Of a DNA stretch of 64,000 bases, positions 36,360 through 54,086 are shown piece by piece. The number at the start of each line of letters is the position of its first letter. The first letter of the stretch is position 1. The notes below the pieces were generated by a model. It was not told the DNA's origin and ran no database searches. It saw nothing but the letters and a program-made list of their open reading frames with translations. The stretch is from assembly GCA_049801375.1 (NCBI GenBank), contig JBARKJ010000046.1, positions 3,204 through 67,203 of the forward strand, read 5' to 3'. The position numbers were made by a program, and so were the translations under genes. The DNA is from Nitrospirota bacterium (lineage in GTDB: Bacteria > Nitrospirota > JACRHJ01).

Positions 36360-36429
36360 TACCGCTTCACCTCCCACTACGATTGCAGAGTATGTAATTT
36401 TTACAAAACAGGGGGCACTAAGTCAAGGA

Positions 36430-38884: not shown

Positions 38885-38907
38885 TCTAGCTAATCCTCCG
38901 TGCGGCC

Positions 38908-39492: not shown

Positions 39493-39564
39493 TGTATTCC
39501 TCCTGTTCACAATCGGGTTAATAAATAAAAACACGGGTAACCCCCCTTGCCTCCTTTCGAGAAT

Positions 39565-40926
39565 TTAACTTCCGAAATTCTTTATTATCAGTCTCGCGGC
39601 GGCCCTGCCGGACAGCACCGACGACGCGGCACAGCCGCCGACCGGAAGCACCGTGGAACCTACGCAGTATAATCCCTTGACAGGCGTATTCGTGCCCATC
39701 TTCTCGTAATGCACGCTCTCGGCGACAGGCGAGACGGAACTGGCAAAACCGAAGTTAACCGCATAGTCCATCGGAGTGTAGAGCCTGCCTTCGACCACGC
39801 TCTCCCGGAAGCCCGGAATCAACGAATCCATTTTAGCCATTACTTTCCCGGCCTCGGCCTCGATTGCCTCTCTTGCGATAGCGCCCTTGGGCACGAGGAA
39901 TTTTATGGTACCGGCAAGATGCTCCCCGCCCGTGTCATGCGCCGCGCCGGGGACGGAGATGACGTACATATTATCTTCCGGAAACGAGCCGTCTTTCAGG
40001 GTCTTGAACATCCCGCCGACACTTTTCGGAAACATCGCGTAGAGGTGCACGCCCGGAGTAATCTTCGCGCTCCTCTTAAATACCGTGAACACGCTCGCCA
40101 TGCAAAAACCCTCTTTGTAGTAGCCCAGCGTGTTCAGGAACCCCTGCGGGAAATTCTCCTTGCCCGCGAGAGAGTGAACCGTCTGCAGAATGCCCGTCCC
40201 GCTTATGACACTCTCCGCCTCTATCTCCCTGCCGTCAAGCAGGACGCCCCTCGCCTTGCCGTCGCTTATCAATATTTTTTTCGGCTGCGCGTTATAGACT
40301 ATGCCGCCGCCGTTCTCGCGGATGACGTCGGCCAGAAGTTCGGGCAGTCTCCCCGAACCGGCTCTGGGTATGAATGGCTTATCGTATCCGTACGTCCTGC
40401 CGAAGACAAGGTTAAACCAATGAGACGGCATATTTTCAGGTTCGTTCCCGGAGAAAAACGCGCCGACATTCAATATCTCCCGTAAATTGTCGTTATCGGT
40501 AATCCGGTTTATCACTTCTTTGTAATTGGAGATTTTCCTGTAGCGGTTAAATAATATCTGACCGCCCATACTGAGGCCGAAGCGGCCGATATCCTTTGCC
40601 CCCATCCCCATGCCGCTAAGGTCCTTAGGCGTATGCAGGCCCGGCGGGATGGTCATGGAGGAATCTGAGCAATTCGCCAGCACCTTGAACCATACCGGCT
40701 CCAGCTCTTTTTTCTTCCCCAGCTCCGAGAATACGCCGAGTAATTTTTTGCCGAAATAGTCCGCGCCGATGTCGAAGCGGTGCCCCATAAGCTCCACCGT
40801 CCGGCATCGCCCGCCCGGCTCGGACATCTTCTCCAGCACCAGCACTTTTTTCCCGGCGCGCGAAAGATACGCTCCGGCGGAAAGCCCGCCAAGACCGGCG
40901 CCGATTATTACCGCGTCATATGACAT
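39565..40926 (-). CDS. FAD-dependent oxidoreductase, phytoene desaturase (CrtI) family
   Basis: The start was set at Met23 (MSYDAVIIGAGLGGLSAGAYLSRAGKKVLVLEKMSEPGGRC, the dinucleotide-binding GxGxxG...E motif followed by GG). ~450 aa CrtI-like length. Confidence 0.7.
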   Translation of the reverse strand: MSYDAVIIGAGLGGLSAGAYLSRAGKKVLVLEKMSEPGGRCRTVELMGHRFDIGADYFGKKLLGVFSELGKKKELEPVWFKVLANCSDSSMTIPPGLHTPKDLSGMGMGAKDIGRFGLSMGGQILFNRYRKISNYKEVINRITDNDNLREILNVGAFFSGNEPENMPSHWFNLVFGRTYGYDKPFIPRAGSGRLPELLADVIRENGGGIVYNAQPKKILISDGKARGVLLDGREIEAESVISGTGILQTVHSLAGKENFPQGFLNTLGYYKEGFCMASVFTVFKRSAKITPGVHLYAMFPKSVGGMFKTLKDGSFPEDNMYVISVPGAAHDTGGEHLAGTIKFLVPKGAIAREAIEAEAGKVMAKMDSLIPGFRESVVEGRLYTPMDYAVNFGFASSVSPVAESVHYEKMGTNTPVKGLYCVGSTVLPVGGCAASSVLSGRAAARLIIKNFGS

Positions 40927-40928
40927 TG

Positions 40929-42131
40929 TCAGGCAAACCCCTTTATCGCCTGCACCGTTTTTTTCGCGGTGTAAACGCATGACTCTATGCACGGGAGCCG
41001 GTAGAAATCTCCGGCCAGATATGCGCCCGGAACCTCGGTCTCGATTCCTCGCGTCCTGCTCCCCGGCGGGATGAGCGTAATCGCCGGAGACCAGCCCACC
41101 TTAGGCAGTTCCTTATATTTCCCGAACACGGCCTCGATGTCCGCGTCCGTCCTGTACATGAACATCCCGGCGATGGTCCTGCCGTCAGGCAGGTGTTTCA
41201 TCTCTCCGCCGTGGATGCCGTGGCGGTTTTTATATTTGGAAAAAAGCAGGACGTCGTATTTGCCGTACCGGGGGGTGCGGGACTCGAATATCACTCCGCG
41301 CGTCTTGGTGGATTTCACGTCCACGGTTATTTCCGGCATCACCTTGCCAAGGCTCTCCTGGCCGGTGGCGAACACCACGCAATCCGCCGTCTCCTTCAAA
41401 GGCTCCCCCTTCGGCCCTTTAAGACTTATATCAAAAGTCCCTGATGCATTTTTCTTTACCCTCTCGACCTTATATCCCGTCTTTACAACGCCCGGCATCC
41501 TCCGCACAAGCTCGGCCGCCACCTCCGCCATCCCCTTGTGCGGTACGCGCACGGGCGAATCGCCGTACGCAAACAGGAACAGCCCATGGTCCGCGGCGAT
41601 GTGAGGCGGGTCTATATACCCGAAGCTGGAGAACGGCTGGACGATGTAGTCCAGCATTTTTTGCGAATAACCCATCTCGCGCACGCAGAACTCTTCGAGT
41701 GAAATCGAATGAAGCTCCCGAAGCTTCGGGTCCCAGTTCTCCATCCGGAAGTCCAGGCCCTTTATAAACTTCTTCAGCCGCCCCCACTGCATGTACTCGG
41801 AAAAAGTAAAAAAGCCGCTTCTGAACATGGACCAGGAATCAAGGCCGGTGATTTTATCGCCTATCTGGAGGGCAAATTTTTTAAGCCTGATCAGCTCGTG
41901 CGACACGCCCAGTTCCGCGATCAGTTCCGTGAAGTGCGGGTTCAGGCGTGGCGCGAACATCATCGCGCCTTTATTTATATATACCCCTTCATATTCCAGC
42001 GTCGCGAACCGTCCGCCCGCATCCGGCCTCTTCTCATAGACGACCGGCTGGCAGCCCTCCTTCCGCAGGTAATAGGCCGTCGAAAGCCCGGCGATACCGG
42101 CACCGAAAATCAAGACCTTTTTATTTAACAT
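40929..42131 (-). CDS. FAD-dependent oxidoreductase (amine-oxidase / protoporphyrinogen-oxidase / HpnE-like)
   Basis: 400 aa. KKVLIFGAGIAGLSTAYYLRKEGCQPVVYEKRPDAGGR N-terminal FAD fold; C-terminal ...GAYLAGDFY typical of the amine-oxidase fold. Confidence 0.65.
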   Translation of the reverse strand: MLNKKVLIFGAGIAGLSTAYYLRKEGCQPVVYEKRPDAGGRFATLEYEGVYINKGAMMFAPRLNPHFTELIAELGVSHELIRLKKFALQIGDKITGLDSWSMFRSGFFTFSEYMQWGRLKKFIKGLDFRMENWDPKLRELHSISLEEFCVREMGYSQKMLDYIVQPFSSFGYIDPPHIAADHGLFLFAYGDSPVRVPHKGMAEVAAELVRRMPGVVKTGYKVERVKKNASGTFDISLKGPKGEPLKETADCVVFATGQESLGKVMPEITVDVKSTKTRGVIFESRTPRYGKYDVLLFSKYKNRHGIHGGEMKHLPDGRTIAGMFMYRTDADIEAVFGKYKELPKVGWSPAITLIPPGSRTRGIETEVPGAYLAGDFYRLPCIESCVYTAKKTVQAIKGFA

Positions 42132-42243: not shown

Positions 42244-43155
42244 TTATAAACCAAGTACAGTTGCCAAATTACCGTACAAAATCTTTTGTTTGGAAGGAAG
42301 CGTTAAGGCTAGTGCGTTAACCGCGTCTATCGACGCCTTTATCTCCCGGTTCGCCGGGAAATCGCTCCCCCACAGCACCCTGTCCTCGCCGAATACATCG
42401 GCCGCAAGTTCCAGCATCTTTACGTCCGCCGTGCCGGAAGTGTCCACGTAAACTTTCTTCAACGTCTCCCCCGGTTCCTCACCCATGTCCTTCACTATCC
42501 CCCGGCCAAGGAGCATCTTGTACGTCCTTCCGTATCTGCCGGCAAGAAACGGCATCACGCCAGCAAAGCTCGCGAACACAAGCTTCAGCCGGGGGAACTT
42601 TTTCAGCAGGCCAGAGTCGATAACCCTGGCGAGGCAGAGCGTGGTATCGAACGCATACTGGAACACCGGAGTTATCAGCGGGTGGCGCAGCTTCTCGAAC
42701 CCGAACGGAGTAAGCGTAGTGGGATGAAAAAAGACCGGCGCTCCCCACCCTTCGGCCTTCTCGAAAAAAGGCAGGAACCTATCATCGTCCGGATAATTAC
42801 CGCCGTTGTTCGTCGGCACTGTAAATCCGGCCGCGCCCTGCGCCAATGCCTCTTCCCCCAGAGTGACCATATCGTCAGCCCCTGCCAATGGCACTGACCC
42901 AAGCCATAAAATACGCCCAGTCGACCTCTTTGCTATGTCCTTCACCGCCCCGTTATATACGCGCGCCGCATCCGTTTCCGCAAGGGCGGCCTTGATGTGA
43001 AAATCGGTAGTCGGGTATGATACCAGCGCGCGAGAAACGCCGGCTTCGTCCATTGCACGAAGATGGTTATCAATTCCGCCCCAGGACTCGTTGTAGAACG
43101 AGGCGTGTTTGATTACCTCGTCCGGCAATAGATGGAAATGCGAATCGAATATCAT
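42244..43155 (-). CDS. Amidohydrolase_2 family (ACMSD / hydroxybenzoate (de)carboxylase / 2-pyrone hydrolase-type TIM-barrel metalloenzyme)
   Basis: The start was set at Met17 (MIFDSHFHLL, the metal-binding HxH of the amidohydrolase fold). ...VLWGSDFP (C-terminal Asp ligand). 1-nt shared ATG/TAA overlap with the flavoprotein gene. Confidence 0.65.
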   Translation of the reverse strand: MIFDSHFHLLPDEVIKHASFYNESWGGIDNHLRAMDEAGVSRALVSYPTTDFHIKAALAETDAARVYNGAVKDIAKRSTGRILWLGSVPLAGADDMVTLGEEALAQGAAGFTVPTNNGGNYPDDDRFLPFFEKAEGWGAPVFFHPTTLTPFGFEKLRHPLITPVFQYAFDTTLCLARVIDSGLLKKFPRLKLVFASFAGVMPFLAGRYGRTYKMLLGRGIVKDMGEEPGETLKKVYVDTSGTADVKMLELAADVFGEDRVLWGSDFPANREIKASIDAVNALALTLPSKQKILYGNLATVLGL

Positions 43156-43880
43156 TAATATCTCAGCACTTCTTTTATCGTTTGAAACAGCTCCGAATTC
43201 CACACGTCGTATACTTGTTCGCCCACCGCGCGCGCCATCATTGTTGCTGGTTTATTCTCCTCATAGGACGGCATCGGCTTATCCAGCAGGGTTTTAAAAC
43301 CGGGATGCTCCATCGCGAAACGCTTTCCAACCATGCAGAGGTTCCTCATCTCCGCATCCATCAGGGCGATTCCAGCGCACGCGACCGACGTCGCCGTCAT
43401 TGCTTTCAGGTAATGGAACAGGTAATAGAGCGCGCCCTCCATGCCGAGCGCCGCGCCAACCGCGAGGTTACCCACCGGGGCGCCCTTGAAAGGGTTTTTC
43501 GGGTATGCGGTGATAGTCGTCCCCCATATCTCCGAACGCTCCTGTTCGTGCAGGGGGCGGGTCCTGTGCAAAAGGTTCATGACTATTGCGGGCTGTTGAT
43601 AGGCATAGACCGGGGACGAAAAAATAAACGCGTCCGATTCGGACATTTTATCAAAAATGAGCTTTCCGTCGTCGCCCTTGTCTTCAAGTAGAGGGCAGGT
43701 AAGGCCGCAGAGGCAGCGGTTGCATGCGAGGCATGGCTTCACGTTGTAATTTATCAGGCGGATAACTTCAGACTCGGCGCCTTTTTCCTCGGCGGCCTCA
43801 AGCGCCTTGCGCAGAAAATAATCGCTGGCGGATTTCTGCTTCCCCCTCTTGTGCGTCCCACAGATACCAAGTATCTTCAT
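43155..43880 (-). CDS. Iron-sulfur flavoprotein (Isf) / NADPH-dependent FMN reductase family
   Basis: The start was set at Met72 of the track ORF (MKILGICGTHKRG, the flavodoxin-like FMN phosphate loop). Compact Cys cluster CLACNRCLCGLTC, typical of Isf [4Fe-4S] binding. Confidence 0.7.
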   Translation of the reverse strand: MKILGICGTHKRGKQKSASDYFLRKALEAAEEKGAESEVIRLINYNVKPCLACNRCLCGLTCPLLEDKGDDGKLIFDKMSESDAFIFSSPVYAYQQPAIVMNLLHRTRPLHEQERSEIWGTTITAYPKNPFKGAPVGNLAVGAALGMEGALYYLFHYLKAMTATSVACAGIALMDAEMRNLCMVGKRFAMEHPGFKTLLDKPMPSYEENKPATMMARAVGEQVYDVWNSELFQTIKEVLRY

Positions 43881-44305
43881 ATTCCCTCGATTATTTCTTT
43901 TATCCTCTGCATGTTCTTCTTCGAGTGCTCGTTTATACGGGCTTCCGCCGTTTTGTCGTCCACCGGCGCTTTTTCGTCCATAGAGAAGTCCTGCTCCCAG
44001 GTCATCTCCACCCCGCCGTCTTTCTCTACGTATGTCCAGAGGAGGTCCATGTATTTGAACGGGAACATCGGCTCCTCGCGTTTCGCGGAGCATTTATGCC
44101 CGGGCTTGTCCAGGATGCGACTGGAGCGCCAGGACTTCCCATCTTTGTTGGTCAACTGGAAGGTTATTTTGTTTCCTTCGCGCGAAAGGATCTTCGCGTC
44201 CGAATACTCGTCAAAAAGCTCGGGCCAGCGCTCGATGTCGTTCGTAATGTCGAACACGCTCCCATAAGGCGCGTTTATGAAGATTGAATTCTTGGTGTGT
44301 GCCAT
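43877..44305 (-). CDS. Type II polyketide aromatase/cyclase (SRPBCC, TcmN / WhiE-ORFVI ARO/CYC N-terminal-domain type), stand-alone
   Basis: 142 aa. NSIFINAPYGSVFDITNDIERWPELFDEYSDAKIL...PMFPFKYMDLLWTYVEKDGGVEMTWEQDFSMDEKAPVDD...NMQRIKEIIE follows the TcmN pattern [29 protein letters not shown]...FAYMNLHWTY...[21 protein letters not shown]...NMERIKKIIE (recalled from memory). Confidence 0.7.
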   Translation of the reverse strand: MAHTKNSIFINAPYGSVFDITNDIERWPELFDEYSDAKILSREGNKITFQLTNKDGKSWRSSRILDKPGHKCSAKREEPMFPFKYMDLLWTYVEKDGGVEMTWEQDFSMDEKAPVDDKTAEARINEHSKKNMQRIKEIIEGI

Positions 44306-44314
44306 TATTTTCCT

Positions 44315-45085
44315 TTAGTCCTCGAGTATAGCCACGGCGCGTGCCCATGCCGCGCCCGCGTTTTTTATCTTTACAGGGAAACAGGCGAACTTAAATCCGT
44401 GCGCCCTCGGGAGCGCGCCGAGGTTTGCGAGCCGCTCTATATGACAGTATTCTTTTTTTCTTCCCAGCATGTGTACCGGCCAGAGTTTTGAGCTGTCCGC
44501 GGTCGTTTGATAATCTGCTACCATATTCATAAAAGGCCTGTCCAGGCCCGGCGCGTCGGTCCCGATAGTCCTGATTCCAAGACCGAATAAATATTCCGCC
44601 GCACGGGCATCCAAACCCGCGAATTTAAGAAAATATTCCTTGGTGCCAAAGTACCTGTCCGCCCCGGTCCTGATGAGCGCGATATCGCCCGGTTTCGGCT
44701 TGTAATTTATTTCTTCTAAGCCCCGCCGCACATCATCCGGTTTTATTTCTCCGCCGGGCGGCAGACTTCTCATGTCAATTACAAAACCGTCCCCATAGCA
44801 CCATTCAAGGGGGACCTCGTCTATCTTCTTCGCCGGCCGTCCTTCCGATTCCGGCCCGAAATGCCACGGCGCGTCCACGTGCGTCCCGCAGTGAACCGAC
44901 GCCTGGACGGTCTCATGTGACAGGAACATCCCGCCGGGAAAAGTATCGCCGCCAATTTTCTTCTCTCCCGGAAATTTTTCCCCTACCCTCTCCGCGCCCT
45001 CCTCATGGCCAATCCGGGTCACCTGTACCGGAAAAGGTTCAGGCGCCAAGTCGTCTATAGGGGTGCTTAGGTCGATTATTTTCAA
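44315..45085 (-). CDS. Cyclase-family protein (PF04199; kynurenine-formamidase-like metal-dependent hydrolase / putative polyketide cyclase)
   Basis: 256 aa. ...SVHCGTHVDAPWHF (His-rich metal site, HxGTHxDxPxH) is diagnostic of the cyclase family. Confidence 0.75.
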   Translation of the reverse strand: MKIIDLSTPIDDLAPEPFPVQVTRIGHEEGAERVGEKFPGEKKIGGDTFPGGMFLSHETVQASVHCGTHVDAPWHFGPESEGRPAKKIDEVPLEWCYGDGFVIDMRSLPPGGEIKPDDVRRGLEEINYKPKPGDIALIRTGADRYFGTKEYFLKFAGLDARAAEYLFGLGIRTIGTDAPGLDRPFMNMVADYQTTADSSKLWPVHMLGRKKEYCHIERLANLGALPRAHGFKFACFPVKIKNAGAAWARAVAILED

Positions 45086-45318
45086 GACCTGGCCGCCACG
45101 GTTAGAAAATAGTCGATTATCTCGCGGACCGTAATCACGCCGTTTATCACGCCGTCGGGGATTTTGGCCGAGAATTCTTTTTCCAGCGCAACCATCAGTT
45201 CCACCATCTCAGTCGAGTCAATCCCGAGACCGCTTTTCAAAGTCGCGTCAGGGCGAAGTTCATTTTTGCCTATGCCTATTTCCGCGAAAACTTTTTCTAC
45301 CCTCTCTTCTACCGGCAT
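45082..45318 (-). CDS. Acyl carrier protein (PKS ACP)
   Basis: 78 aa. GIDSTEMVEL (phosphopantetheine attachment Ser in the DSxE/xxE motif). ATGA overlap with the cyclase gene. Confidence 0.8.
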   Translation of the reverse strand: MPVEERVEKVFAEIGIGKNELRPDATLKSGLGIDSTEMVELMVALEKEFSAKIPDGVINGVITVREIIDYFLTVAARS

Positions 45319-45328: not shown

Positions 45329-46537
45329 TTACCTAGGCTTTCCGATTAAAAGGCAGGCGTTTACCCCGCCCCGCCCGATGGAATTTATAATGATATCCTG
45401 CTGATCGAACTTCTTTGTTCCGCCGCCGTTAAAGAAATCAAATTCCGGATCAAGCACTTTGAGGGTCGGCGTCTCACCTCTACCAAGCGCCATGCAGGCA
45501 AGTGCCGTGTCGAGCGCGCCGGACGCCCCTAATAAATTCCCAGTCTGCGGCTTCGGCGAATAAACCGGCAGTTCACTTGCCCTGTTTCCGAATATTTTTA
45601 AAAGGGCCCTTCCCTCGGATAAATCTGCTTCCTTCCCCGCATTCGCGGATGGGATAGCCATCCCGATTTCGGATGGAGAGATAGCGGCCTGCCGCATCGC
45701 GAATCCGATGGCGCGGGCCATGCCTTCGCCTGAGGGGTCCGGCATAGTCGGATGGACACCGTCGCTGGTAAACCCGAAACCTTTTACTTCCGCGTATATT
45801 CTGGCCCCCCTCGCGGCTGCCTTTTCCATATCTTCGATGACGAGTACGGCCGCCCCTTCGCCGATTATATATCCGTCCCGGCTCTTACTGAAGGGCCTGT
45901 AGCTCCCGGTCTGGCTGAGCTCCCCGGATGTATTGCAACACAGAAGCGCGTAAGGCGATACCGGGGCTTCGGTGCCGCCAGCTAACATCACGTCCGCCTT
46001 GTCCGTTTGAATGGCTCGCGCGGCGTAAGCGATAGCTAGATGCGAACTTGCTATGTCGGAAATTATGGTCTTGGAAAAACCTTTTATGCCGTAGAAGATG
46101 GATATCTGGCCCTGCGGCGCCGCCGGGAACCATGCGGTTGCCTGGTACGGGCTGACTTCCCGAAGGCCGTGCTTCCAGAGGTCCCGCAGTTCCTCCTCCG
46201 CAAAAGCCCAGCCGCCCAGGGCGTTGCCGAAGGCTATCCCGACACGGTCTTTGTCCTCGGCGTCAAGGTTAATCCCGCTGTCTTTAATCGCCCCGTCGGT
46301 GGCTGAGAGCGCCATGTGCGAGAACCTGTCCAGCTTCTTAAGTAGCCGCTTGGAAAATATCTCTTCTCCGCCAAGATTATTTACCAACCCCGCGTGACGG
46401 GACGGATAGCGCGAAGCGTCAAAGCGGCTGATCTCGCCCGTGAAGCCATCGCCCGAGGAGAGCCTGTCGAATAATTCTTCAGGCGAATTGCCAGCCGGGC
46501 TCACTACCCCGATGCCTGTTATGACCGCGCGTCTCAT
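45329..46537 (-). CDS. Ketosynthase beta / chain-length-factor-like KS homolog lacking the catalytic Cys and second His
   Basis: The start was set at Met38 (MRRAVITGIGVVSPAG, ATGA overlap with the KS-alpha stop). In the active-site region ...FSKTIISDIASSHLAIAYAARAIQTDKADVMLAGGTE the Cys of T-A-C-x-(T/S) is replaced (Ile or Asp). One His is retained (VHPTMPD) and the second His region is divergent (MAIPSANAGKE). Confidence 0.8.
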   Translation of the reverse strand: MRRAVITGIGVVSPAGNSPEELFDRLSSGDGFTGEISRFDASRYPSRHAGLVNNLGGEEIFSKRLLKKLDRFSHMALSATDGAIKDSGINLDAEDKDRVGIAFGNALGGWAFAEEELRDLWKHGLREVSPYQATAWFPAAPQGQISIFYGIKGFSKTIISDIASSHLAIAYAARAIQTDKADVMLAGGTEAPVSPYALLCCNTSGELSQTGSYRPFSKSRDGYIIGEGAAVLVIEDMEKAAARGARIYAEVKGFGFTSDGVHPTMPDPSGEGMARAIGFAMRQAAISPSEIGMAIPSANAGKEADLSEGRALLKIFGNRASELPVYSPKPQTGNLLGASGALDTALACMALGRGETPTLKVLDPEFDFFNGGGTKKFDQQDIIINSIGRGGVNACLLIGKPR

Positions 46538-47790
46538 GCCCGCCTCAAGACCATTGACGAATGGATCCCGGAGAACCCGCTGCTCGTTTTTATCACCACG
46601 TCCACCTTTTTCTCCCGCGCCCAGTTCGGCACATAATCTAAGTCGCATGCAGGGTCGGGCTCACGGTAATTCACCGTCGGCGGGATAATGCCCCGCTCCA
46701 TCACCATCGCCGAAAGCGCTAGCTCGATGGCGTTCGCCGCGGAAAGCGGATGTCCTATCATGGACTTGATGGAACTGACGGGCACCCGAAAGGCATGTTC
46801 CTTAAGCGCGGTCTTTATCGCGTTCGTCTCGAAGACATCGTTCTGTTCCGTGGAGCTTCCATGAGAGCTTATGTAATCAACGTCATCGGCGTTGACCCGC
46901 GCCTCGTCCATAGCCATTTTTATAGACCGGGCAAGGGCCTCGCCGTCCGGCGGTAAATCCGTCATGTGATACGCATTGGATGTGGAGCCGAAACCTGCTA
47001 TCTCCGCATATATCTTCGCACCGCGCTTCGCCGCGTGCCCGTATTCCTCCAGTACCAGTATCCCCGCGCCCTCGGCCAGGACAAACCCGTTCCTCGTCCT
47101 GTCGAAAGGACGAGACGCCGCCCCGGGGTCGTCATTATGCTTCGAGAGCGCCTTTATTACATCGAATGCGGCAAGGGCTATCGGCGTAATCGGGGCCTCG
47201 GACGCGCCGGTTATCATCATGTCGCATAAGCCGAGTTGGATATTTTCATACGCATAGGCCACCGAATCCGTCCCGGCCGTGCAGCCGGTGGATATGACGC
47301 ACGCACCGCCTTTTAAGCCATAGCGCGCGGCTATGAAGTTGGCGGGAGAATTGAATATGGACGCATCATACAGATACGGCGACGCGAGGCCCGGGTCAAT
47401 CGGCTCATGCCCGTTCCGGGTCACGCGCAGGAACTCCTCCTCCATCCATTTCGTCCCGCATATGGCGTTAGCCAGCGCCACTCCGCACCGCTCACGATCC
47501 AGGCCGCCGAATTCCAGCCCGGCGTCCTCCACTGCCAGCTTCGCCCCGGCCAGGGCGAACTGCAGATAGCGGTCCATCCCCGAGGCCTCTTCAGACGAGA
47601 TGCCGAAGACGGCGGGGTTGAACCCCTTCACTTCCGCCGCGACCTTCGAAAGGAACTCGGAGGTATCGAATGCGGTAATAAGCCCGGTCTGCGTCCGCGC
47701 GTTTATCATGGAATCCCAGAAGGCGTCTTTACCGATGCCTCCCGGCGCGATAACGCCCAGGCCTGTTATGACGACCCTGCGGAGATTCAA
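46534..47790 (-). CDS. Ketosynthase alpha (FabF/KAS II-like, catalytically competent)
   Basis: 418 aa. ISTGCTAGTDSVAYA (active-site Cys), AYHMTDLP (His1), YISSHGSST (His2), C-terminal NSFGFSGIHSSMVL-like end. Confidence 0.85.
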   Translation of the reverse strand: MNLRRVVITGLGVIAPGGIGKDAFWDSMINARTQTGLITAFDTSEFLSKVAAEVKGFNPAVFGISSEEASGMDRYLQFALAGAKLAVEDAGLEFGGLDRERCGVALANAICGTKWMEEEFLRVTRNGHEPIDPGLASPYLYDASIFNSPANFIAARYGLKGGACVISTGCTAGTDSVAYAYENIQLGLCDMMITGASEAPITPIALAAFDVIKALSKHNDDPGAASRPFDRTRNGFVLAEGAGILVLEEYGHAAKRGAKIYAEIAGFGSTSNAYHMTDLPPDGEALARSIKMAMDEARVNADDVDYISSHGSSTEQNDVFETNAIKTALKEHAFRVPVSSIKSMIGHPLSAANAIELALSAMVMERGIIPPTVNYREPDPACDLDYVPNWAREKKVDVVIKTSSGFSGIHSSMVLRRA

Positions 47791-48056
47791 CCCTCCACCC
47801 TCCTGACCTTGAACCGCACATACCCGCCGTCCGGGCAGGTTACGGTGTTGATGGAATTCGGGTCTTCCATGAAGGGGTACTTCGCACCGAAGTTCAGGGC
47901 GAAGAGCACCGGGAACAGCGTATGGTATGCCGCGCCGCAGAAACCTTCCGGCGTCCGAAGTCCCAGGACCTCCACCTCCTGGCCCCGCTCGTATTTATAA
48001 AAACACGGCCCGGAAACTTCCTCGACCGATATAACCATTTTTTTGGGATTTGCCAT
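47787..48056 (-). CDS. Small Cys-containing protein, paralog B (~89 aa; resembles TIGR04076-type proteins)
   Basis: The start was set at Met21 (MANPKKMVISVEEVSGPCFYKYERGQEVEV...PEGFCGAAYHTLFP...FGAKYPF...VTCPDGGYVRFKVRR). ATGA overlap with the KS-alpha gene. Confidence 0.5.
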   Translation of the reverse strand: MANPKKMVISVEEVSGPCFYKYERGQEVEVLGLRTPEGFCGAAYHTLFPVLFALNFGAKYPFMEDPNSINTVTCPDGGYVRFKVRRVEG

Positions 48057-48319
48057 TATAATTTCCTCACCTTGAACGTCAGTTTCCCACCGTCCGGGCA
48101 TGTCGTCCTGACGCAACCTTCCCCATCCTTGAAAGGGAATTCCGCGCCGAATGTCCAGGCATAAATAATCGGGAATAGCGAATGATACGCCCCGGCGCAG
48201 AAGCCGTCGGGCGGCGTCACGAAGTCCTTTACCTCAAAAGAATCACCCGCTTTATATCCCTTGAAACATTCTTTTTGAAGACTGTCCACCGTCAGCAGAA
48301 AACCCGGAAACTCCATCAT
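48056..48319 (-). CDS. Small Cys-containing protein, paralog A (87 aa; resembles TIGR04076-type proteins)
   Basis: ...KECFKGYKAGDSFEV...PDGFCAGAYHSLFP...FGAEFPF...TTCPDGGKLTFKVRK. The same architecture as paralog B (~45% identity by eye). TAATG stop/start overlap. Confidence 0.5.
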   Translation of the reverse strand: MMEFPGFLLTVDSLQKECFKGYKAGDSFEVKDFVTPPDGFCAGAYHSLFPIIYAWTFGAEFPFKDGEGCVRTTCPDGGKLTFKVRKL

Positions 48320-49314
48320 AAGCCTAACCTCGTTAGCATCTCTTCCGTTGATAGAAATTGATTTGTTTTTTCGATTTCCCTGACCAGCTCCGCCGCTTTT
48401 GAATTCAACTTTGCCTCCCGCCCCATCTCAAGCGCCACCCTCGCGACTTCGCCGTTTAAATAATCCACCTCCGACGAGCGGCCCCGCATGACGCTCTGCA
48501 GGACGGAGCCTGGAAGGGGGAGGTGGGAAAGGCCCCGCATGATATTGCCATATATCTGCGCCCCCACTTCCTCCGGGGCGTATAGCAGCGATTTCAACTT
48601 CTCCAGAGGCAGGTTCGGGAGGTCGGCCATCTCCATCCCTCCCGCTTCAAAAACCTCCCATGCTTCGCGCATCATCGACAGCCCCAATATGCATATCCTT
48701 TTATCCGAAAACGTCTCCTGCAGGTTCTTCCCCAGTACGCAGGCAAGCGCGTTATTCAGGTTCAGTACGAGCTTCGCGCGGTGCATGGCCTGGATGTTGC
48801 CGGCTACGCGCACTTCTAAAGACCCGGCCATGATACTCTTCGCCTTATCGACAATGCCGCCGCCGTCCGGGCCGAACGCCTTGCCTATAACCAGGCCGCC
48901 GGGAAAGTTATACGTTACATGCCCCGGCTCTTTATATGTCGCCCCGAACATAACGACCGAAGAAATGATTCGCTCGCTGCCAAGGATGCTTCCGGCTATC
49001 TCGTCGGCCATCAGGCCGTTCTGCATCGTCAGCGCCGGAAAATCACCCATGCCTGCAATCTGAGTACACGCCGTTTCCAGGTCCTGCGTCTTTACCGCGA
49101 GGAGGGCCAGGTCGGGAATGAACTCCAGCGACCTTGCGGCATATATGACAAAGTTATTCCTTGCCGAAATGCCGTCAAGCGACAGGCCTTCGCGGTTAAT
49201 CGCCCGGACCTGGCGCGGGTCGCGGCTGACAAGGGTAACAGCGTGTCCCTTCTCATGGAGCAGCGCCCCCGCAACACACCCGATAGCCCCCGCGCCGATT
49301 ACCGCTATTTTCAT
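48316..49314 (-). CDS. Ketopantoate-reductase-family NAD(P)H oxidoreductase (ApbA/PanE); candidate polyketide ketoreductase
   Basis: 332 aa. MKIAVIGAGAIGCVAGALL Rossmann N-terminus; C-terminal ApbA_C-like domain. Confidence 0.75.
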   Translation of the reverse strand: MKIAVIGAGAIGCVAGALLHEKGHAVTLVSRDPRQVRAINREGLSLDGISARNNFVIYAARSLEFIPDLALLAVKTQDLETACTQIAGMGDFPALTMQNGLMADEIAGSILGSERIISSVVMFGATYKEPGHVTYNFPGGLVIGKAFGPDGGGIVDKAKSIMAGSLEVRVAGNIQAMHRAKLVLNLNNALACVLGKNLQETFSDKRICILGLSMMREAWEVFEAGGMEMADLPNLPLEKLKSLLYAPEEVGAQIYGNIMRGLSHLPLPGSVLQSVMRGRSSEVDYLNGEVARVALEMGREAKLNSKAAELVREIEKTNQFLSTEEMLTRLGL

Positions 49315-49387: not shown

Positions 49388-51253
49388 TTAATGAGGTTTT
49401 CCTGTTTTAACGTCCCAGCCGTGGCAGGCGTAATATTCGTCCAGCATCCCGTCGTACAAATCCCGGTCGAGCTTCATCGTTCGAGATTCGTCGTCCAGCC
49501 CGTCCTGCCATATGAGCGGCTCGAAATACCTCATGGGCGGGTAATCGTCTTTCCGCCCCACGCCCTCGTGGCAAATGAACCTGCGCTCCACATCCGTTAT
49601 AGCGTGTCCCGCCGCGAATACCTCTTCCGGCGCCATCTCCATTCCGCTGCCCTTCCTGATGAGGTCGCTGAATACATTGAAGCCGAATACGCCCGGCTCC
49701 GGCAAGGTGTGGAAGGCCAGGAGCTTGCACAGCCCCAGCGCGTCGAAGAGCGCTAGATAACTTTCCCACCACCAGACCACCCGGCCCTTGCCGCCATATT
49801 TCAGCGGGTCCGGCTCCACCGGCCCGCCATAAATTCCCGCCAGAAATTCCTTATCGAATTCGAACGCCTCCCAGGGACAGCGGCTTCGGAGGTGGTCTGC
49901 ACCGCGGGTTGCGGTGGAGACTCCAAGGGCGAACGCCTTGATGAACCGGAGGTCTACCGGGTCCGACTGCGGGAGGCCCTTCACCCAGATCATGCGTCCG
50001 GCCGAGTCCTTTCCGAATTGAGCCGACGCCGCCGATGCGCCGTTAGCAAGGACGTCTCCAAACCCTCTGCGGTATGCAATATCCTCCAGAAGCAGGGCGA
50101 CCGTCTCCGGGTCGTTCCAGTCCAGCTTCATCCCGCCGGTCTCGGCGTCTCCGATAAAACCTTCTTTATACAATTCTATTGCCCACGCTATTATGTTGCC
50201 GGCGGAGCTTGCGTCTATGCCGAGGCGGTTAAGCCTGTCGTTCAACATGAGTACCGCTTCGGAGGAATTTATCCCAAGCACCGGCCCCATATGTCCCATG
50301 ATGCCGTATTCCGGACCTTCGCCTGTCAGCCCGGCATGTTTTCCTTCAGTTATTTTATATGAATGCCTGCACGCCACCGCGCAGTGCCTGCATCCGCGTT
50401 TGCCCGAATAATATCGTGCTTCCAGCGTCTCCGGGCCAAGGTCCCCGGGCTCTTTCATTTTCGTCGAGAGGCCGTTATATGCCCGGCCCATCTCGATGTT
50501 CGTATTTATTACGTTATATAGATGCGCCGTCCCGAAACGCGCAAGGTCCTGCGTAAGGAATTCCGTCCGAAGCTTCGAATTTATTTCGTGGGTAAGGGCA
50601 GCAAAACCGTCCGGGTCGTGCGGCTGGACCTTCCCGCCGTCGAGCGCCACAACCGCCTTCAAATTTTTTGCCCCCATCAGGCAGCCCATCCCGGTGCGGC
50701 CCGCGGCATTCTTTCTGCCGTGCATAACGCATGCGAAGCGGACGAGGTTCTCACCGGCCGGGCCTATGCACGCGATATGGGCCTTCACGCCATGCTCCTC
50801 TTTTATGACCTTTTGCGCTTCGACTGTGTCCATGCCCCAGACGTGCGAGGCTTCTTTTATTTCCGCAGCCGTCCCGTCGCCAATTTTTTTTATAAGAAGA
50901 TAAACGGGTCTATCCGACTTACCTGTGATGACCAGATGCCTGACGCCCGTGGAGGCTAAAGCGCACCCGAAATCCCCTCCGATATTCGCGTCTCCTAAAA
51001 GACCGCTCTCCGGGCTCTTGCCGGTGATGGTCAGTCTGGCGGATGACGGCCCCGGCATCCCGGTTAGCAGGCCCGCGCCGAATATCAACGGGTTCTCCGG
51101 GCTTAGAGGGTCCAGGCCTTTCTTTGTATTTTCAAAGAGCAGCGCGCTGTTTATCCCCCGCCCGCCGATGTAATTGCGAAGGAGGCTTTCCGGAAGGTCC
51201 TTTACTTCGGAGGCCCCGCCGCTTAGATCTATATATAAGATTTTATGGTTCAT
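49388..51253 (-). CDS. Aldehyde:ferredoxin oxidoreductase (tungsten/molybdopterin AOR family)
   Basis: 621 aa. N-terminal KILYIDLSGGASEVKDLPESLLRNYIGGRGINS (AOR_N); internal CRHC-type [4Fe-4S] Cys ligands (GCRHCAVACRH). Confidence 0.85.
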   Translation of the reverse strand: MNHKILYIDLSGGASEVKDLPESLLRNYIGGRGINSALLFENTKKGLDPLSPENPLIFGAGLLTGMPGPSSARLTITGKSPESGLLGDANIGGDFGCALASTGVRHLVITGKSDRPVYLLIKKIGDGTAAEIKEASHVWGMDTVEAQKVIKEEHGVKAHIACIGPAGENLVRFACVMHGRKNAAGRTGMGCLMGAKNLKAVVALDGGKVQPHDPDGFAALTHEINSKLRTEFLTQDLARFGTAHLYNVINTNIEMGRAYNGLSTKMKEPGDLGPETLEARYYSGKRGCRHCAVACRHSYKITEGKHAGLTGEGPEYGIMGHMGPVLGINSSEAVLMLNDRLNRLGIDASSAGNIIAWAIELYKEGFIGDAETGGMKLDWNDPETVALLLEDIAYRRGFGDVLANGASAASAQFGKDSAGRMIWVKGLPQSDPVDLRFIKAFALGVSTATRGADHLRSRCPWEAFEFDKEFLAGIYGGPVEPDPLKYGGKGRVVWWWESYLALFDALGLCKLLAFHTLPEPGVFGFNVFSDLIRKGSGMEMAPEEVFAAGHAITDVERRFICHEGVGRKDDYPPMRYFEPLIWQDGLDDESRTMKLDRDLYDGMLDEYYACHGWDVKTGKPH

Positions 51254-51365
51254 GTTTTATACTTGTCACACCCGTGAAAACGGGTATCCGGGTGCCCCGG
51301 CGGGAATGACGGTCAGTCCCTTCTTAACCCCCTTTCTTAACATTAAGAAGGGGGGAAGAGGAGAG
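51254..51365 (-). other. Structured 5' leader of the AOR gene (two to three GC-rich hairpins)
   Basis: Minus-strand hairpins CTTCCCCCCTTCTTAA-TG-TTAAGAAAGGGGG and ACCCGTTTTCACGGGT lie immediately upstream of the AOR ATG. Not followed by a U-tract. Confidence 0.3.
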
Positions 51366-51611
51366 TTATGCCGGCATATCGAATCCCGCGCTCCTGGCCG
51401 TGTCCCGCATACTATTCTGAAACGGCGCCGGGGTCTCTGCAATCAACGCAGCTACTATATGGTCCTCTTCGACCTGCGCCGCGCCGCGTTCCTGCGCGTA
51501 TTCTTCCGCCTTCTTCCCCGCCAGTCTCTCCGCCATCTTCCGCTGAAAAAATGGGATCATAGATATCATTTTTTCAAATTTCGTCCGCGCCCCAGTCTCC
51601 CAGTCCATCAA
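51366..51611 (-). CDS. Small PCP-reductase-family-like protein (PF08369-like, 81 aa)
   Basis: MMDWETGARTKFEKMISMIPFFQRKMAERLAGKKAEEYAQERGAAQVEEDHIVAAL resembles the stand-alone PCP_red domain (W...A...L..IP.FxR). Confidence 0.45.
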   Translation of the reverse strand: MMDWETGARTKFEKMISMIPFFQRKMAERLAGKKAEEYAQERGAAQVEEDHIVAALIAETPAPFQNSMRDTARSAGFDMPA

Positions 51612-52129
51612 TGTCTCCTTATTAATGATTTGAAGAAACGTCTCCTGTCCTGCTCTTCAGGAGAAAGCCGATCCTCCTCTTGCTTCGAGACTTCAACACC
51701 CTCAAGGCTCGCCTTCAGAGAACGCAGAATCAGTTTTATATTATCGTCATGCATCCGCCGGTAAATGCGCGCCCACAAGATGCGGTTAAGATTCCCGACT
51801 ATTTCGTAGTCCATCAGGAAATGGACCTCGTTGAACCCCCGGTTGGGAATTATATATACCTTGTCCGTGCCCTTGAACATCCCGTTGATGAATTTCCTTG
51901 AGACCTCGCGTCCGGGCGTGATTGAAGTCACCTCGACGTCCCATTCCGGCGCGAACGGCCTGTGCACTTTCTGATGGAATATCGTGCCGACCTTTATCTC
52001 TCCCTTTTCTTCGCGGCTGTACTTCATGGGCGATTCATCAGGCCACCAGGAACTCTCGCCCCAGAGGATAACTTGTTCGAATATCTTTTCATGCGGCGCC
52101 TGTATCTCCACGAAGTGGTGGTTCAGCAA
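51608..52129 (-). CDS. SRPBCC-superfamily protein (Polyketide_cyc2-like) with a charged C-terminal tail
   Basis: 173 aa. HHFVEIQAPHEKIFEQVILWGESSWWP ... TRVT-like strand pattern. Weak family-level call. Confidence 0.4.
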   Translation of the reverse strand: MLNHHFVEIQAPHEKIFEQVILWGESSWWPDESPMKYSREEKGEIKVGTIFHQKVHRPFAPEWDVEVTSITPGREVSRKFINGMFKGTDKVYIIPNRGFNEVHFLMDYEIVGNLNRILWARIYRRMHDDNIKLILRSLKASLEGVEVSKQEEDRLSPEEQDRRRFFKSLIRRH

Positions 52130-53529
52130 TTCTTAAGCTCCGCGATCTTGTCCTCTACCAGCTTCTTGAACGGGGCGGGGGTAACCCTCTGCCATGCGGC
52201 GTAAATATCGTCCAGGCTCACTTTCCCGCCGTTTACATTTACCTCCGCGGACACTTTTTTCCCGGCGGTCGAACGGAAAATCGCGGGTACGAAATCAATG
52301 AGTTTTTTATGAGCCGTCTGCGCTTCGGAGTCCCATTCGCCCGCCGTCGGCTCCGGCTCTTCCCGGTAAATCTCGCCGGAAACGAGCGACTCCAAAAGCG
52401 CCTCGTACCTCCCTGCAACCTCCCCCGTCAGCGCCTTGTCCACCGTAAGCGCCCTCTTGGCGATCAGGGCGCAGTACCCGCACTCTTCGCAGTCACTCGT
52501 CGCGCAGTCCTTGGTCTTGAAGAAGCTTAAGAAGTTTGACGGGACCTTCGAGTTATCCAGGACCAGGCCTTCCGTCACCGGGTAATCCGTGATATCCGCG
52601 AACTCCATCAATTTAGACGTATTTATATATTCATCCCTCAGGAGATACTTTACATTCGCGGGCAGGAACGCCTTCTTGCGGGGAAGGTTCAGAAGCTCCA
52701 CGAGGTTCCCGTCAAACCGCCTGTCGGTATATGCCTTCAGGTACGACAGCAGCGTCTCGGTGGTCTTGTAACGGTCTATGATCTTAAGGCAATCAATGCC
52801 TATCATCTCGTAATCTTCCACGTCCTCGGGGCGTATCCAGCGTATCTTTATCAACTCCGCCGGGTTTTTTATCTTGTCCTTCGTGCAGGAGAAATAGCAG
52901 TGGTCAACAAGGAAGCCTTCGGAGGAATGATTACCCTGGGAGCCGTGTGTCATGACGTTCGCGTGGTAGAAAGAGCGCGGACATCCGTACAGGCAGCCGG
53001 GGTTGGCGATAAGGATAAGCTTGCACTTTACCGCTTTCCGGATGGCCTCCAGGGTTTTAAAATCACGGTTTATCTCCTCGGACAGCACGATAGCGTCCGC
53101 GCCCATCTCCTCCCAGTACTGGGCCTTCCGTACGCTCTCCACCCGCGCCCAGGAAGATACTACGGCTTTCAGGGCCGGATAATGTTTTTTGATTATCTGG
53201 AAGAGGTAGGGTATTGTGACCGTCACCCAGTCCGCGGAGGTCGCCTGCACCCATTCGACATGACGGAGTATCTTTTCGAACTCGTCTTTTCTGTACTCCC
53301 TGTTATCGAGACAGGAGGCATTCAGCAGGAAGTTGAAAGAATGCCCTGCTTCGCGTGCGGCTGCGATATATTTTTCGGCGTCGGCTTCCGTCACTTCCGG
53401 GGCGACGAAAGACGCCCTGCCCCCCGCGATAAGGCTTCCGGGGATGCCGCCGAACAGCTCCACCTTCGGGGAGCCTTCCAGCCCTTCAAGGAGCGCGGGA
53501 TCCCAATTACATGCCAGTTCGAATTTCAT
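52123..53529 (-). CDS. Cys-rich protein of unknown function (468 aa), putative Fe-S or metal enzyme
   Basis: Motifs GCLYGC, HCYFSC and DCATSDCEECGYC; GADAIVLSEE TIM-barrel-like stretch. No confident family assignment from sequence alone. Confidence 0.35.
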   Translation of the reverse strand: MKFELACNWDPALLEGLEGSPKVELFGGIPGSLIAGGRASFVAPEVTEADAEKYIAAAREAGHSFNFLLNASCLDNREYRKDEFEKILRHVEWVQATSADWVTVTIPYLFQIIKKHYPALKAVVSSWARVESVRKAQYWEEMGADAIVLSEEINRDFKTLEAIRKAVKCKLILIANPGCLYGCPRSFYHANVMTHGSQGNHSSEGFLVDHCYFSCTKDKIKNPAELIKIRWIRPEDVEDYEMIGIDCLKIIDRYKTTETLLSYLKAYTDRRFDGNLVELLNLPRKKAFLPANVKYLLRDEYINTSKLMEFADITDYPVTEGLVLDNSKVPSNFLSFFKTKDCATSDCEECGYCALIAKRALTVDKALTGEVAGRYEALLESLVSGEIYREEPEPTAGEWDSEAQTAHKKLIDFVPAIFRSTAGKKVSAEVNVNGGKVSLDDIYAAWQRVTPAPFKKLVEDKIAELKNC

Positions 53530-54086
53530 GCGGCCCCTTCCCTTCCAGCCTCAAGTCTGCCGATTATCCCTTCCAGAAACTTTATCTCCGCCTCCGAGTG
53601 CGCGAGGTAATGCGCGGGTATGAAAAGCATATGCTCCGGCGCGCCCTTCGATGCCAGTTCGTCTTTAAACCGCTCCGCTTCGGCGTGATACTCCTTAAGC
53701 CGCACCCGGAGTTCCCGGAGTTGAACAAGGAACTGCCCCGCATCCGATTCCCGGAGAAAATAGAAGGATATATCAAGCGCCAGGTGCGGACGCTCGAAGT
53801 TCGTTATGTTCTCCTGAAGGAGGCTGTCGAAGGTGCGGACGCCCTCGTCCGTGATATGGTAAATCTGCTTTTCGGGGTGCGCGGTGTCCTTGAGGACGCT
53901 CTTGGTCACAAGGCCGCGTTTTTCCAGGATTTTGAGGTTATGGTAGAGCGAGCCGGAGGTGATGGGCGCGACATGGACGAGTTCCTCGTCCACAAGCTGC
54001 TTTATCTCGTAGCCGTACATCGGCTTCCTCTTCAGAAGTCCAAGAAGAAGCACCTCTTTCGACATCGTGGTATTAAAGCCTGCCAC
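53526..54086 (-). CDS. PadR-family transcriptional regulator (head of the co-directional cluster)
   Basis: LLLGLLKRKPMYGYEIKQLVDEELVHVAPITSGSLYHNLKILEKRGLV is the PadR winged-HTH. An alternative start is Met8 at 54065. ATGA overlap with the next gene. Confidence 0.8.
   Translation of the reverse strand: MAGFNTTMSKEVLLLGLLKRKPMYGYEIKQLVDEELVHVAPITSGSLYHNLKILEKRGLVTKSVLKDTAHPEKQIYHITDEGVRTFDSLLQENITNFERPHLALDISFYFLRESDAGQFLVQLRELRVRLKEYHAEAERFKDELASKGAPEHMLFIPAHYLAHSEAEIKFLEGIIGRLEAGREGAA

Follow-up and report, generated by a model that had tools for sequence, protein, structure and literature searches.

The glutamine (Gln) of the chain length factor (CLF) is the textbook account of how aromatic polyketide synthases (PKSs) make their acetate starter, although how much it really matters is a matter of long debate. 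A stretch of 64,000 nucleotides from an uncultured, anaerobic Nitrospirota bacterium (contig JBARKJ010000046.1; the whole stretch, 64 kb, is referred to as the window) carries a pair of type II ketosynthase (KS) genes in which the second product has no Gln at the expected position, and the question raised by this locus is what such a partner does and how its synthase is primed. The two genes are as follows:

46534-47790, minus strand: KSalpha, the active ketosynthase (418 aa, TTG start; PF00109 and PF02801)
45329-46537, minus strand: KSbeta, the CLF (402 aa, ATGA-coupled to KSalpha; PF00109 and PF02801, E-values of 2.7e-41 and 9.9e-20)

The pair is the KSalpha and CLF of an aromatic type II PKS. 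The explanation that we favour, to which a probability of roughly 60% is given, is that KSbeta is a catalytically dead, plugged and tunnel-forming partner, and that KSalpha provides default acetate priming; from the sequences we infer the formation of a heterodimer, the plugged site, acetate priming and the chain length.

KSalpha retains Cys170, His310, Lys342, His347 and Phe406, and the corresponding GCHKHF pattern was found in 72 of the 73 KSalpha sequences of related loci aligned with MAFFT. When KSalpha was compared with solved structures, the actinorhodin (act) KS (1TQY_A, 401 bits) and AntD (6SMO_B, 389 bits) were the best matches; FabF (349 bits) and the polyene KS Iga11 (211 bits) scored lower, and PDB entries 9S5H/9S5I, a KS heterodimer, scored below 1TQY. 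At the junction of the two genes (GCGGGCATGAGACGC), the TGA stop codon of KSalpha overlaps the ATG start codon of KSbeta (ATGA), with GAGG 5 nt upstream of the start, and the KSbeta N-terminus MRRAVITG agrees with that of its homologues. KSbeta lies directly downstream of KSalpha in 74 of 81 related loci, the remainder being mostly short contigs or loci with KSbeta near a contig end.

The old active site of KSbeta was then located by four independent alignments, all of which agree that the position of the catalytic Cys, or of the CLF Gln, is held by Ile162, with Asp161 at the preceding (-1) position. The features of the site are as follows:

46043-46060, minus strand: remnant of the nucleophilic elbow, S160-D161-I162-A163-S164-S165 (the codons translate to SDIASS)
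45644-45649, minus strand: position of the first catalytic His, lost, Ser297-Ala298 (Ser297 by MAFFT and hhalign, Ala298 by HMMER)
45536-45553, minus strand: K329-P-Q-T-G-N334, with the Lys335 equivalent kept and the second catalytic His replaced by Asn
45371-45373, minus strand: Arg389 at the gating-Phe position (FabF F400), GRGG in place of GFGG

The alignments were HMMER pairwise comparisons of KSbeta with five FabF structures; a MAFFT L-INS-i alignment with about 160 KS sequences, among them E. coli and B. subtilis FabF, the act KS and the act CLF; an hhalign alignment of the act CLF to the profile of the KSbeta family, which placed D161 opposite E160 and I162 opposite Q161 with no gap across residues 83-162; and an AlphaFold2 (AF2) model, in which strand 155-159, loop 160-163 and helix 164-177 have the geometry of a nucleophilic elbow and S160-A163 lie in the elbow. 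The peptide IISDIASSHLAIAYA spans KSbeta residues 158-172, and residues 145-176 hold neither C nor Q, so that no alignment shift can supply a Cys or a Gln. An earlier note on this DNA had described a KSalpha/KSbeta pair joined by an ATGA overlap, with an upstream KS that retains Cys-His-His; both points are borne out, by the translational coupling and the adjacency of KSalpha in 74 of 81 loci and by C170, H310 and H347. The replacement of Cys in KSbeta, which that note had left between Ile and Asp, holds up as well, with Ile162 at the position itself, and the outcome named there as decisive against the idea, a Cys or Gln at this position in a profile alignment, did not arise. The note had also claimed loss of the second His alone: the second is indeed gone (Asn334), and so is the first (Ser297).

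Read as -1, Cys, first His, Lys, second His and gating Phe, the KSbeta pattern is D-I-S-K-N-R and that of the act CLF is E-Q-D-K-R-R. The act CLF has Asp and Arg at the two His positions and Arg at the gating Phe (GRWG); the loss of both His in KSbeta is therefore ordinary for a CLF, as the act CLF has neither. Where the two proteins differ, Gln161 of the act CLF stands against Ile162 of KSbeta, and Arg at its second-His position against Asn. Only the missing Gln is therefore unusual in KSbeta, since the His losses and the change from Phe to Arg are found in the act CLF too. A decarboxylating KS(Q)-type enzyme needs Gln, both His and the gating Phe, and KSbeta has I162, S297, N334 and R389 in their places. 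Nor is KSbeta a FabF/KAS II enzyme: it has no catalytic triad, and its TIGR03150 score is 321.8 bits against a cut-off of 493.75.

Apart from the hallmark Gln (Q161 of the act CLF), KSbeta is a true CLF by every criterion of sequence, fold, phylogeny and gene order. In a neighbour-joining tree (BLOSUM62, 28 taxa, 410 columns, FabF as outgroup, with the act CLF as the one characterised CLF), KSbeta and the act CLF formed a clade in 100 of 100 bootstraps, as did KSalpha and the act KS. KSbeta shares with the act CLF a set of derived characters, namely the acidic -1 residue, the loss of the first His, the retained Lys and the change of Phe400 to Arg, and the two were aligned end to end by hhalign with a probability of 100% and 31% identity (the act CLF sequence used is identical to 1TQY_B residues 10-415). 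By pairwise score KSbeta is nearer to FabF (242 bits, 35% identity) than to the act CLF (182 bits), because, as the tree suggests, actinobacterial CLFs sit on a long branch; KSbeta is less diverged from FabF than the act CLF is. The AF2 monomer of KSbeta, with a predicted local distance difference test (pLDDT) score of 84.6 and a predicted template modelling (TM) score of 0.90, has the full KASII fold and a TM score of 0.89 to FabF. E. coli and B. subtilis FabF (KAS II) thus share the fold of KSbeta and give its highest pairwise scores; however, FabF is a homodimer with Cys-His-His-Lys-Phe, whereas KSbeta is without Cys, both His and Phe and is paired with an intact KSalpha.

The genes immediately downstream place the pair in an aromatic, non-reducing type II PKS, as KSalpha, KSbeta, an acyl carrier protein (ACP) and two cyclases are encoded in one coupled operon:

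45082-45318, minus strand: ACP (78 aa, GIDS Ser35, PF00550), the only ACP in the window
44315-45085, minus strand: PF04199 cyclase, TTGA-coupled to the ACP gene and found beside the PKS in nearly all related loci
43877-44305, minus strand: TcmN-type SRPBCC aromatase/cyclase (PF03364/PF10604)

The SRPBCC protein matches the TcmN aromatase/cyclase structures 2REZ/2RER at an E-value of 1.6e-33 and also matches the WhiE cyclase 3TVR, and PF04199 is the family that we take to hold the OxyN/DpsY-type cyclases. The KSalpha-KSbeta-ACP order and the translational coupling are common to this locus and the actinorhodin KS-CLF (ActI-ORF1/ORF2, 1TQY). The ancestral type II PKS has been proposed to have had just such an architecture, a KS-CLF-ACP order together with OxyN-type and TcmN-type cyclases (PMC7693217).

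To what extent the old active site is constrained was read from 194 distinct KSbeta sequences of the lineage, drawn from Nitrospirota, Omnitrophota, Planctomycetia, Thermodesulfobacteriota and Ktedonobacteria. Position 162 is R in 90, K in 52, I in 21, S in 16, L in 4, T in 4, V in 3, N in 2, M in 1 and C in 1, and Gln was found at this position in none of the 194. With ten residues tolerated and Gln not among them, position 162 appears, as judged from sequence, not to be under selection. Asp161 is present in all 194, Lys329 in 192 and Arg389 in 187; at position 334, 166 sequences have Asn and 27 have His. Across the 194 sequences, mutual information with position 162, calculated with no phylogenetic correction, is highest for position 297, that of the first His. 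The pairs of residues at 162 and 297 are Arg or Lys with Asp or Glu in 138 sequences, to which 4 Arg-His pairs in Ktedonobacteria are added; Ser or Cys with Asn in 17; and an aliphatic residue, Thr, Asn or Met with Ser, Ala or Gly in 35, among which is the Ile-Ser pair of the window KSbeta. The covariation of position 162 (codon 46052-46054) with 297 (45644-45649) suggests a direct contact within a filled former active site. In FabF the catalytic Cys and the first His are neighbours in the active site, and given this proximity the chemically matched pairs point to compensatory packing in a dead site. One cluster of the Ser-Asn subgroup (P0036) has a Cys at the old catalytic position (ADCASG) with both His still gone, apparently a reversion by chance that restored no functional triad.

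A wider search covered 1.84 billion representatives at 50% identity, and the best 150 matches included 32 single-domain proteins. The Cys is missing from 24 of these 32 (22 with D or E at -1 and 2 with Gly; the Cys position itself has R, K, T, M or A), and the remaining 8 keep it (7 FabF-type ACHKHF and 1 GCYKHI). Gln was found at the Cys position in none of the 32. As an acid at -1 is common to this wide set and the act CLF, and Gln is absent from the set, the acidic -1 residue, and not Gln, is the joint character. In the same search, many proteins of about 800-870 aa (P0134, P0136, P0145 and others) matched KSbeta over two stretches; these are probably fused KS-KS didomains, possibly KS-CLF.

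The interface and tunnel of KSbeta are conserved to a very different degree. The helix concerned is the following:

46187-46228, minus strand: G104-L117 (GNALGGWAFAEEEL), the dimer-interface/tunnel helix, with W110, A113 and L117 on act CLF gatekeepers

The act CLF gatekeepers F109, T112, F116 and W194 correspond to W110, A113, L117 and Y196 of KSbeta; at the first three of these, F109/T112/F116 of the act CLF thus stand against W110/A113/L117 in the window. W110, A113, L117 and Y196 are invariant in 81 loci from five phyla, and segment 104-118 is almost wholly invariant. These frozen residues point to the interface and the tunnel as the parts of KSbeta under selection. In the AF2 monomer, pLDDT is low over interface segment 108-138, and confidence is low over 104-118 too, which is expected if this part orders only in the dimer. 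W110 aligns with W107 of AntE, the CLF of the AntD-AntE pair of Photorhabdus luminescens, and W107' is the chain-length determinant, the residue that ends the AntDE pocket (PMC9006962). By analogy with this match, the polyketide chain is probably of about octaketide length or shorter.

If Gln is missing, how would the synthase be primed? Elongating ketosynthases can decarboxylate malonyl-ACP themselves, several non-acetate systems keep the CLF Gln, and the Gln of the act CLF was reportedly found by Dreier and Khosla in 2000 (Khosla laboratory) not to be strictly required. Non-acetate priming of a type II PKS needs an initiation module of ketosynthase III (KSIII), an acyltransferase and a second ACP, and decarboxylative priming is the default when no such module is available (PMC340942). 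Pfam scans of selected open reading frames (ORFs) across the window found no KSIII, acyltransferase, coenzyme A (CoA) ligase or second ACP, and phmmer over all window ORFs of 50 aa or more detected a single ACP and no KS beyond these two; within the 64 kb, therefore, the locus does not have the composition of a bimodular, non-acetate-primed PKS. AntE has Asp in place of Gln and is said to lack "hallmark and gatekeeper residues", AntDE is described as making an acetyl-primed octaketide, and Asp is also listed for the WhiE spore-pigment CLF in the S2 Table of the same paper (PMC6638757). With no initiation module, a Gln-less AntDE that is acetyl-primed and the complete machinery of KSalpha, acetate priming by KSalpha is favoured. 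Since Gln is absent from the whole of a widespread lineage, its loss in KSbeta is most likely no signal of an exotic starter. The earlier note had offered two meanings for the missing Gln. A non-acetate starter does not fit the lack of an initiation module in 64 kb, the acetyl-primed AntE precedent or a residue that varies over ten amino acids in 194 sequences; a purely structural partner is favoured and supported, as the Cys position drifts and the tunnel and interface residues are invariant.

The AntD-AntE system (6SMO/6SMP) is the closest parallel in kind, as it too is a non-actinobacterial aromatic type II PKS with a CLF that lacks Gln, and its cluster is, like that of the window, a minimal PKS with TcmN-type and OxyN-type cyclases (PMC7693217). 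The AntE motifs GN..GGW and Y.ATAWFPAA.QGQ also occur in the N-terminal half of KSbeta. In the ungapped register, however, the -1 and Cys positions are Ser-Asp in AntE and Asp-Ile in KSbeta, and AntE has a short, divergent C-terminal third whereas KSbeta has a complete PF02801 domain; KSbeta is thus not an AntE-type CLF, having Ile at the Cys position and a complete C-terminal domain, while the W107' equivalent is kept. A CoA ligase and a phosphopantetheinyl transferase are encoded within the ant cluster itself (PMC6638757), and neither is found in the window. AntE (6SMO_C) was read from alignments to a chimera of KSbeta with four AntE tryptic peptides (PMC6638757), and no score from these alignments was used. 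The register was settled by spacing: 10 residues separate SKT from AI.YAA in KSbeta, AntE, FabF, the act KS and the act CLF, and MAFFT placed no gap there. The HMMER register, which sets 'SDVA' of AntE on 'SDIA' of KSbeta, was rejected, as it needs an insertion and a deletion of one residue five positions apart. Because the spacing is identical and an indel is unlikely in a strand-elbow-helix, Asp159 of AntE falls on Ile162 and not on Asp161.

A KS-CLF of Ktedonobacter racemifer has been studied in vitro (Klein et al. 2020), and the KSbeta of a Ktedonobacter locus in our set (L065, which may not be the cluster of that paper) is of the same lineage, with 42% identity to the window KSbeta. Its KSalpha-KSbeta-ACP-cyclase-SRPBCC order is as in the window, and it has Asp at -1 and Arg, again not Gln, at the Cys position. 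Unlike the window KSbeta, that of Ktedonobacter still has both His, the Lys and a gating Phe or Leu (DRHKHF/L), and L065 is without TIGR04076, ApbA and amidohydrolase neighbours. The same D-R-H-K-H-F/L pattern was seen in four Ktedonobacteria loci (L065, L029, L070 and L081), where the site has decayed much less than in other members of the lineage.

On the explanation that we favour, KSalpha would do all of the chemistry in a KSalpha-KSbeta heterodimer. KSbeta, a full-length but dead KAS-fold partner, would pair with KSalpha and close the product tunnel through W110, A113, L117 and Y196. Its former active site would be plugged and not repurposed, the Cys and first-His positions changing together, the gating Phe having become Arg and an invariant acid standing at -1, like Glu160 of the actinorhodin CLF. 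KSalpha would decarboxylate malonyl-ACP to an acetyl primer, as in the Gln-less AntDE system, after which the TcmN-type and PF04199 cyclases would fold the chain and enzymes that need no oxygen would tailor it. Several points weigh against this explanation. The K. racemifer KS-CLF had no detectable interaction with its own holo-ACP in vitro (bioRxiv 10.1101/2020.05.18.102780). The 162-297 covariation was measured with no phylogenetic correction, and the 162-297 and 161-389 contacts are presumed by homology with the Cys163/His303/Phe400 cluster of FabF. The tree is a neighbour-joining phylogeny of 28 taxa and is prone to long-branch effects. Asp161, Lys329, Arg389, Asp305 and Glu308 vary little or not at all, and such constancy could reflect a function that the old site has kept and not mere packing. 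The gene of a starter-loading enzyme could also lie in another part of the genome.

Some of these points bear on an explanation that we consider unlikely, in which KSbeta still primes by another chemistry and Asp161, together with Lys329, Asn334 and Arg389, forms an alternative site of malonyl-ACP decarboxylation that replaces Gln. The conservation of D161 (194/194), K329 (192/194) and R389 (187/194) would be accounted for, as would the acid that stands at -1 both in the act CLF (E160) and in 22 of the 24 single-domain representatives without Cys; AntE has an Asp one residue later, and Asn for the second His recalls what is generally known of FabH-type Cys-His-Asn ketosynthases (the triad is named in PMC12664062). 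However, the adjoining Cys and first-His positions drift freely, the gating Phe needed for a malonyl pocket is Arg, access of the ACP to an Asp161 site is unsupported, and the act CLF has Glu160 and Gln161 together, which argues that the acid is no substitute for Gln. Doubtful to a like degree is priming by a non-acetate starter, supplied either by an enzyme from another part of the genome or by a cluster protein that has escaped recognition, the missing Gln then reflecting lost decarboxylative priming. Known non-acetate systems keep an initiation module (PMC340942), no KSIII, acyltransferase, acyl-CoA/ACP ligase or second ACP is found within 64 kb, and the Gln-less AntE belongs to a system reported to be acetyl-primed (PMC6638757); yet Gln is nowhere in the lineage, the KS pair has constant companions with no assigned role (the TIGR04076 proteins, an 81-aa protein and an ApbA-like reductase), and the aldehyde:ferredoxin oxidoreductase of the operon could handle unusual acyl or aldehyde units.

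It is highly improbable that the locus is not a PKS at all and that the pair is of the fatty-acid or polyene (highly reducing) type with KSbeta as a decayed FabF paralogue. That idea draws on the KSbeta scores (FabF 242 bits against 182 bits for the act CLF), on fabF as the best NCBIfam model for KSbeta, although below its cut-off, on an LpxL-like acyltransferase and lipid A genes nearby, and on the tendency of tools to label such non-actinobacterial CLFs 'type II FAS' (fatty acid synthase) (PMC10132072). It was rejected on the tree, the KSalpha scores and the cyclases: KSbeta groups with the act CLF in 100/100 bootstraps, KSalpha is nearest to the act KS (401 bits) and AntD (389 bits), with FabF at 349 and Iga11 at 211, and among the operon genes are those of a TcmN-type aromatase/cyclase and of a PF04199 cyclase, with no dehydratase or enoyl reductase seen. 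A further, tentative idea, which we hold to be rather improbable, is that [Asp/Glu]-x is the ancestral CLF hallmark and Gln a late actinobacterial addition, that initiation rests on another factor, and that the cassette makes an unknown aromatic polyketide. Initiation or its control may on this idea lie with the invariant Asp161 or with the Cys3His TIGR04076 pair coupled to KSalpha, and the product may be an aromatic polyketide not described to date, perhaps a phenol or quinone with redox activity, made by a route that needs no oxygen. The cassette comprises the TIGR04076 pair, the KS pair, the ACP, the two cyclases, a reductase and an amidohydrolase-type decarboxylase, to which Nitrospirota add U32, B12-radical SAM and aldehyde:ferredoxin oxidoreductase genes. 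Among these explanations we keep to the dead, tunnel-forming KSbeta with acetate priming by KSalpha; the system is a member of the KS-CLF family by homology, gene order and context and probably works like the act and ant minimal PKSs.

The remaining genes of the operon and its flanks, the roles of which in the pathway are putative, are as follows:

43155-43880, minus strand: flavin mononucleotide (FMN) reductase-like flavoprotein, ATGA-coupled to the SRPBCC gene and conserved in Nitrospirota loci
42244-43203, minus strand: Amidohydrolase_2 protein (PF04909), a candidate non-oxidative aromatic-acid decarboxylase by its family, conserved across phyla
48056-48319 and 47787-48056, minus strand: TIGR04076-A and TIGR04076-B, paralogous small proteins coupled to each other and to KSalpha
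48316-49314, minus strand: ApbA/ketopantoate-reductase-family oxidoreductase, a candidate polyketide ketoreductase, ATGA-coupled to TIGR04076-A and present in most related loci
49388-51253, minus strand: aldehyde:ferredoxin oxidoreductase, upstream operon gene
within 49388-54086, minus strand: an 81-aa protein and a 173-aa unknown protein, upstream operon genes
52123-53529, minus strand: U32-family protein, upstream operon gene
53526-54086, minus strand: PadR regulator, upstream operon gene
34974-42131, minus strand: downstream genes for two amine-oxidase/phytoene-desaturase-like flavoproteins, DUF4410, B12-radical SAM, an LpxL-like acyltransferase and radical SAM-SPASM

In the direction of transcription, the ApbA-like gene is joined to TIGR04076-A by ATGA, TIGR04076-A to TIGR04076-B by TAATG, TIGR04076-B to KSalpha by TTGA and KSalpha to KSbeta by ATGA; after a gap of 10 nt the ACP gene is joined by TTGA to the PF04199 cyclase gene, and after a further gap of 9 nt the SRPBCC gene is joined by ATGA to the FMN reductase-like gene. 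The upstream block (49388-54086) is syntenic in L001, L002, L005, L007, L008 and L010, and the downstream block (34974-42131) is syntenic in close Nitrospirota relatives; membership of the pathway is putative for all of the downstream genes.

Across phyla, most of the 81 related loci have the TIGR04076 pair (about 88 aa each) together with the KS pair. From phylum to phylum the second copy shows 55-73% identity, a stronger conservation than that of KSbeta, and C18, C40, H45 and C74 (three Cys and one His) are near-invariant. No sequence match was found in the PDB, no significant Foldseek match was found for a model with a pLDDT of 85, and no informative literature was found for these proteins. 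At the position of the pair, one Omnitrophota locus (L037:8150-8746) has a single ORF of 198 aa with no Pfam match, which may be a fusion of both.

The cluster also contains enzymes typical of oxygen-free chemistry (49388-53529 and 34974-38884, minus strand), namely a tungsten/molybdenum-type aldehyde:ferredoxin oxidoreductase, the U32-family protein, B12-radical SAM and radical SAM-SPASM. The U32 family includes O2-independent hydroxylases such as TrhP, and UbiU and UbiV are further O2-independent hydroxylases of this family. This set of enzymes hints at anaerobic tailoring of an aromatic polyketide.

An LpxL-like acyltransferase gene (36430-37329, minus strand) lies between the B12-radical SAM and SPASM genes; it is the second of its kind in the window, distinct from the copy at 16490-17443, and is syntenic with the PKS cluster in close Nitrospirota relatives. 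A long lipid A/outer-membrane locus follows just downstream (12978-31923, minus strand), with BamA, Skp/OmpH, LpxD, LpxA, LpxI, a GFO/MocA oxidoreductase and DegT aminotransferase, LpxB, an MsbA-like ABC exporter, DUF374, KdtA, LpxK, LpxL and two heptosyltransferases, and further glycosyltransferases and an asparagine synthase lie in the first 1-12 kb of the window. Two ORFs overlap in different frames at 33486-34765 (minus strand): a thiamine pyrophosphate-binding domain lies at 34019-34765, and a pyruvate:ferredoxin oxidoreductase gamma domain forms the C-terminal half of ORF 33486-34541, with no alpha subunit seen adjoining. The latter ORF (351 aa) is probably over-extended at its 5' end.

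No recorded protein is identical to KSbeta, as judged by an exact-sequence look-up. The closest relatives of the locus are in two metagenome-assembled genomes of Nitrospirota (L002 and L008; CAVOSJ01 and CAVTDB01), with KSbeta 92-93% identical and full synteny, and a relative at 77% has an identical order of 24 genes. A conserved core of the 81-aa protein, ApbA-like reductase, TIGR04076 pair, KSalpha, KSbeta, ACP, cyclase, SRPBCC and Amidohydrolase_2 is found also in Thermodesulfobacteriota, Omnitrophota (including complete chromosomes of 1.3-1.8 Mb) and Planctomycetia, and the Ktedonobacter loci have KSalpha-KSbeta-ACP-cyclase-SRPBCC. In one Omnitrophota locus there are, in addition, genes for an MFS transporter, an SDR and a B12-radical SAM enzyme. 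The spread into small genomes prompted the idea of a quinone-cofactor pathway, which was rejected and is kept only as speculation, as this Omnitrophota locus has no prenyltransferase or UbiE-type genes; it does hold the MFS exporter, the SDR, the B12-radical SAM enzyme and an amidohydrolase. The synthase lineage is old, mostly non-actinobacterial and present in at least five phyla, with the 194 distinct KSbeta sequences and several clusters at 50% identity as its known extent here.

KS-CLF pairs from Nitrospirae, Omnitrophica and Planctomycetes were catalogued in 2023, in a paper that describes a 'previously unexplored', mainly non-actinobacterial CLF clade and is silent on Gln (PMC10132072); the catalogue covers pairs from these phyla and not necessarily these exact sequences. 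A 2026 preprint on KS/CLF evolution makes no mention of Gln or of these phyla. As far as we found, the signature of Asp at -1 followed by a variable residue, its covariation and the conserved accessory set are undescribed in the literature. With that catalogue and the Gln-less precedent of AntE, the present data sharpen a known picture and do not overturn it. What the lineage offers is a set of natural variants in which Gln never occurs, position 162 drifts, Asp161 is invariant and the tunnel is frozen, and which lets one ask who decarboxylates malonyl-ACP and what role is played by the acidic -1 residue that these proteins have in common with the actinorhodin CLF. It also flags an uncharacterised, anaerobe-style pathway to aromatic polyketides that is widespread in uncultured bacteria.

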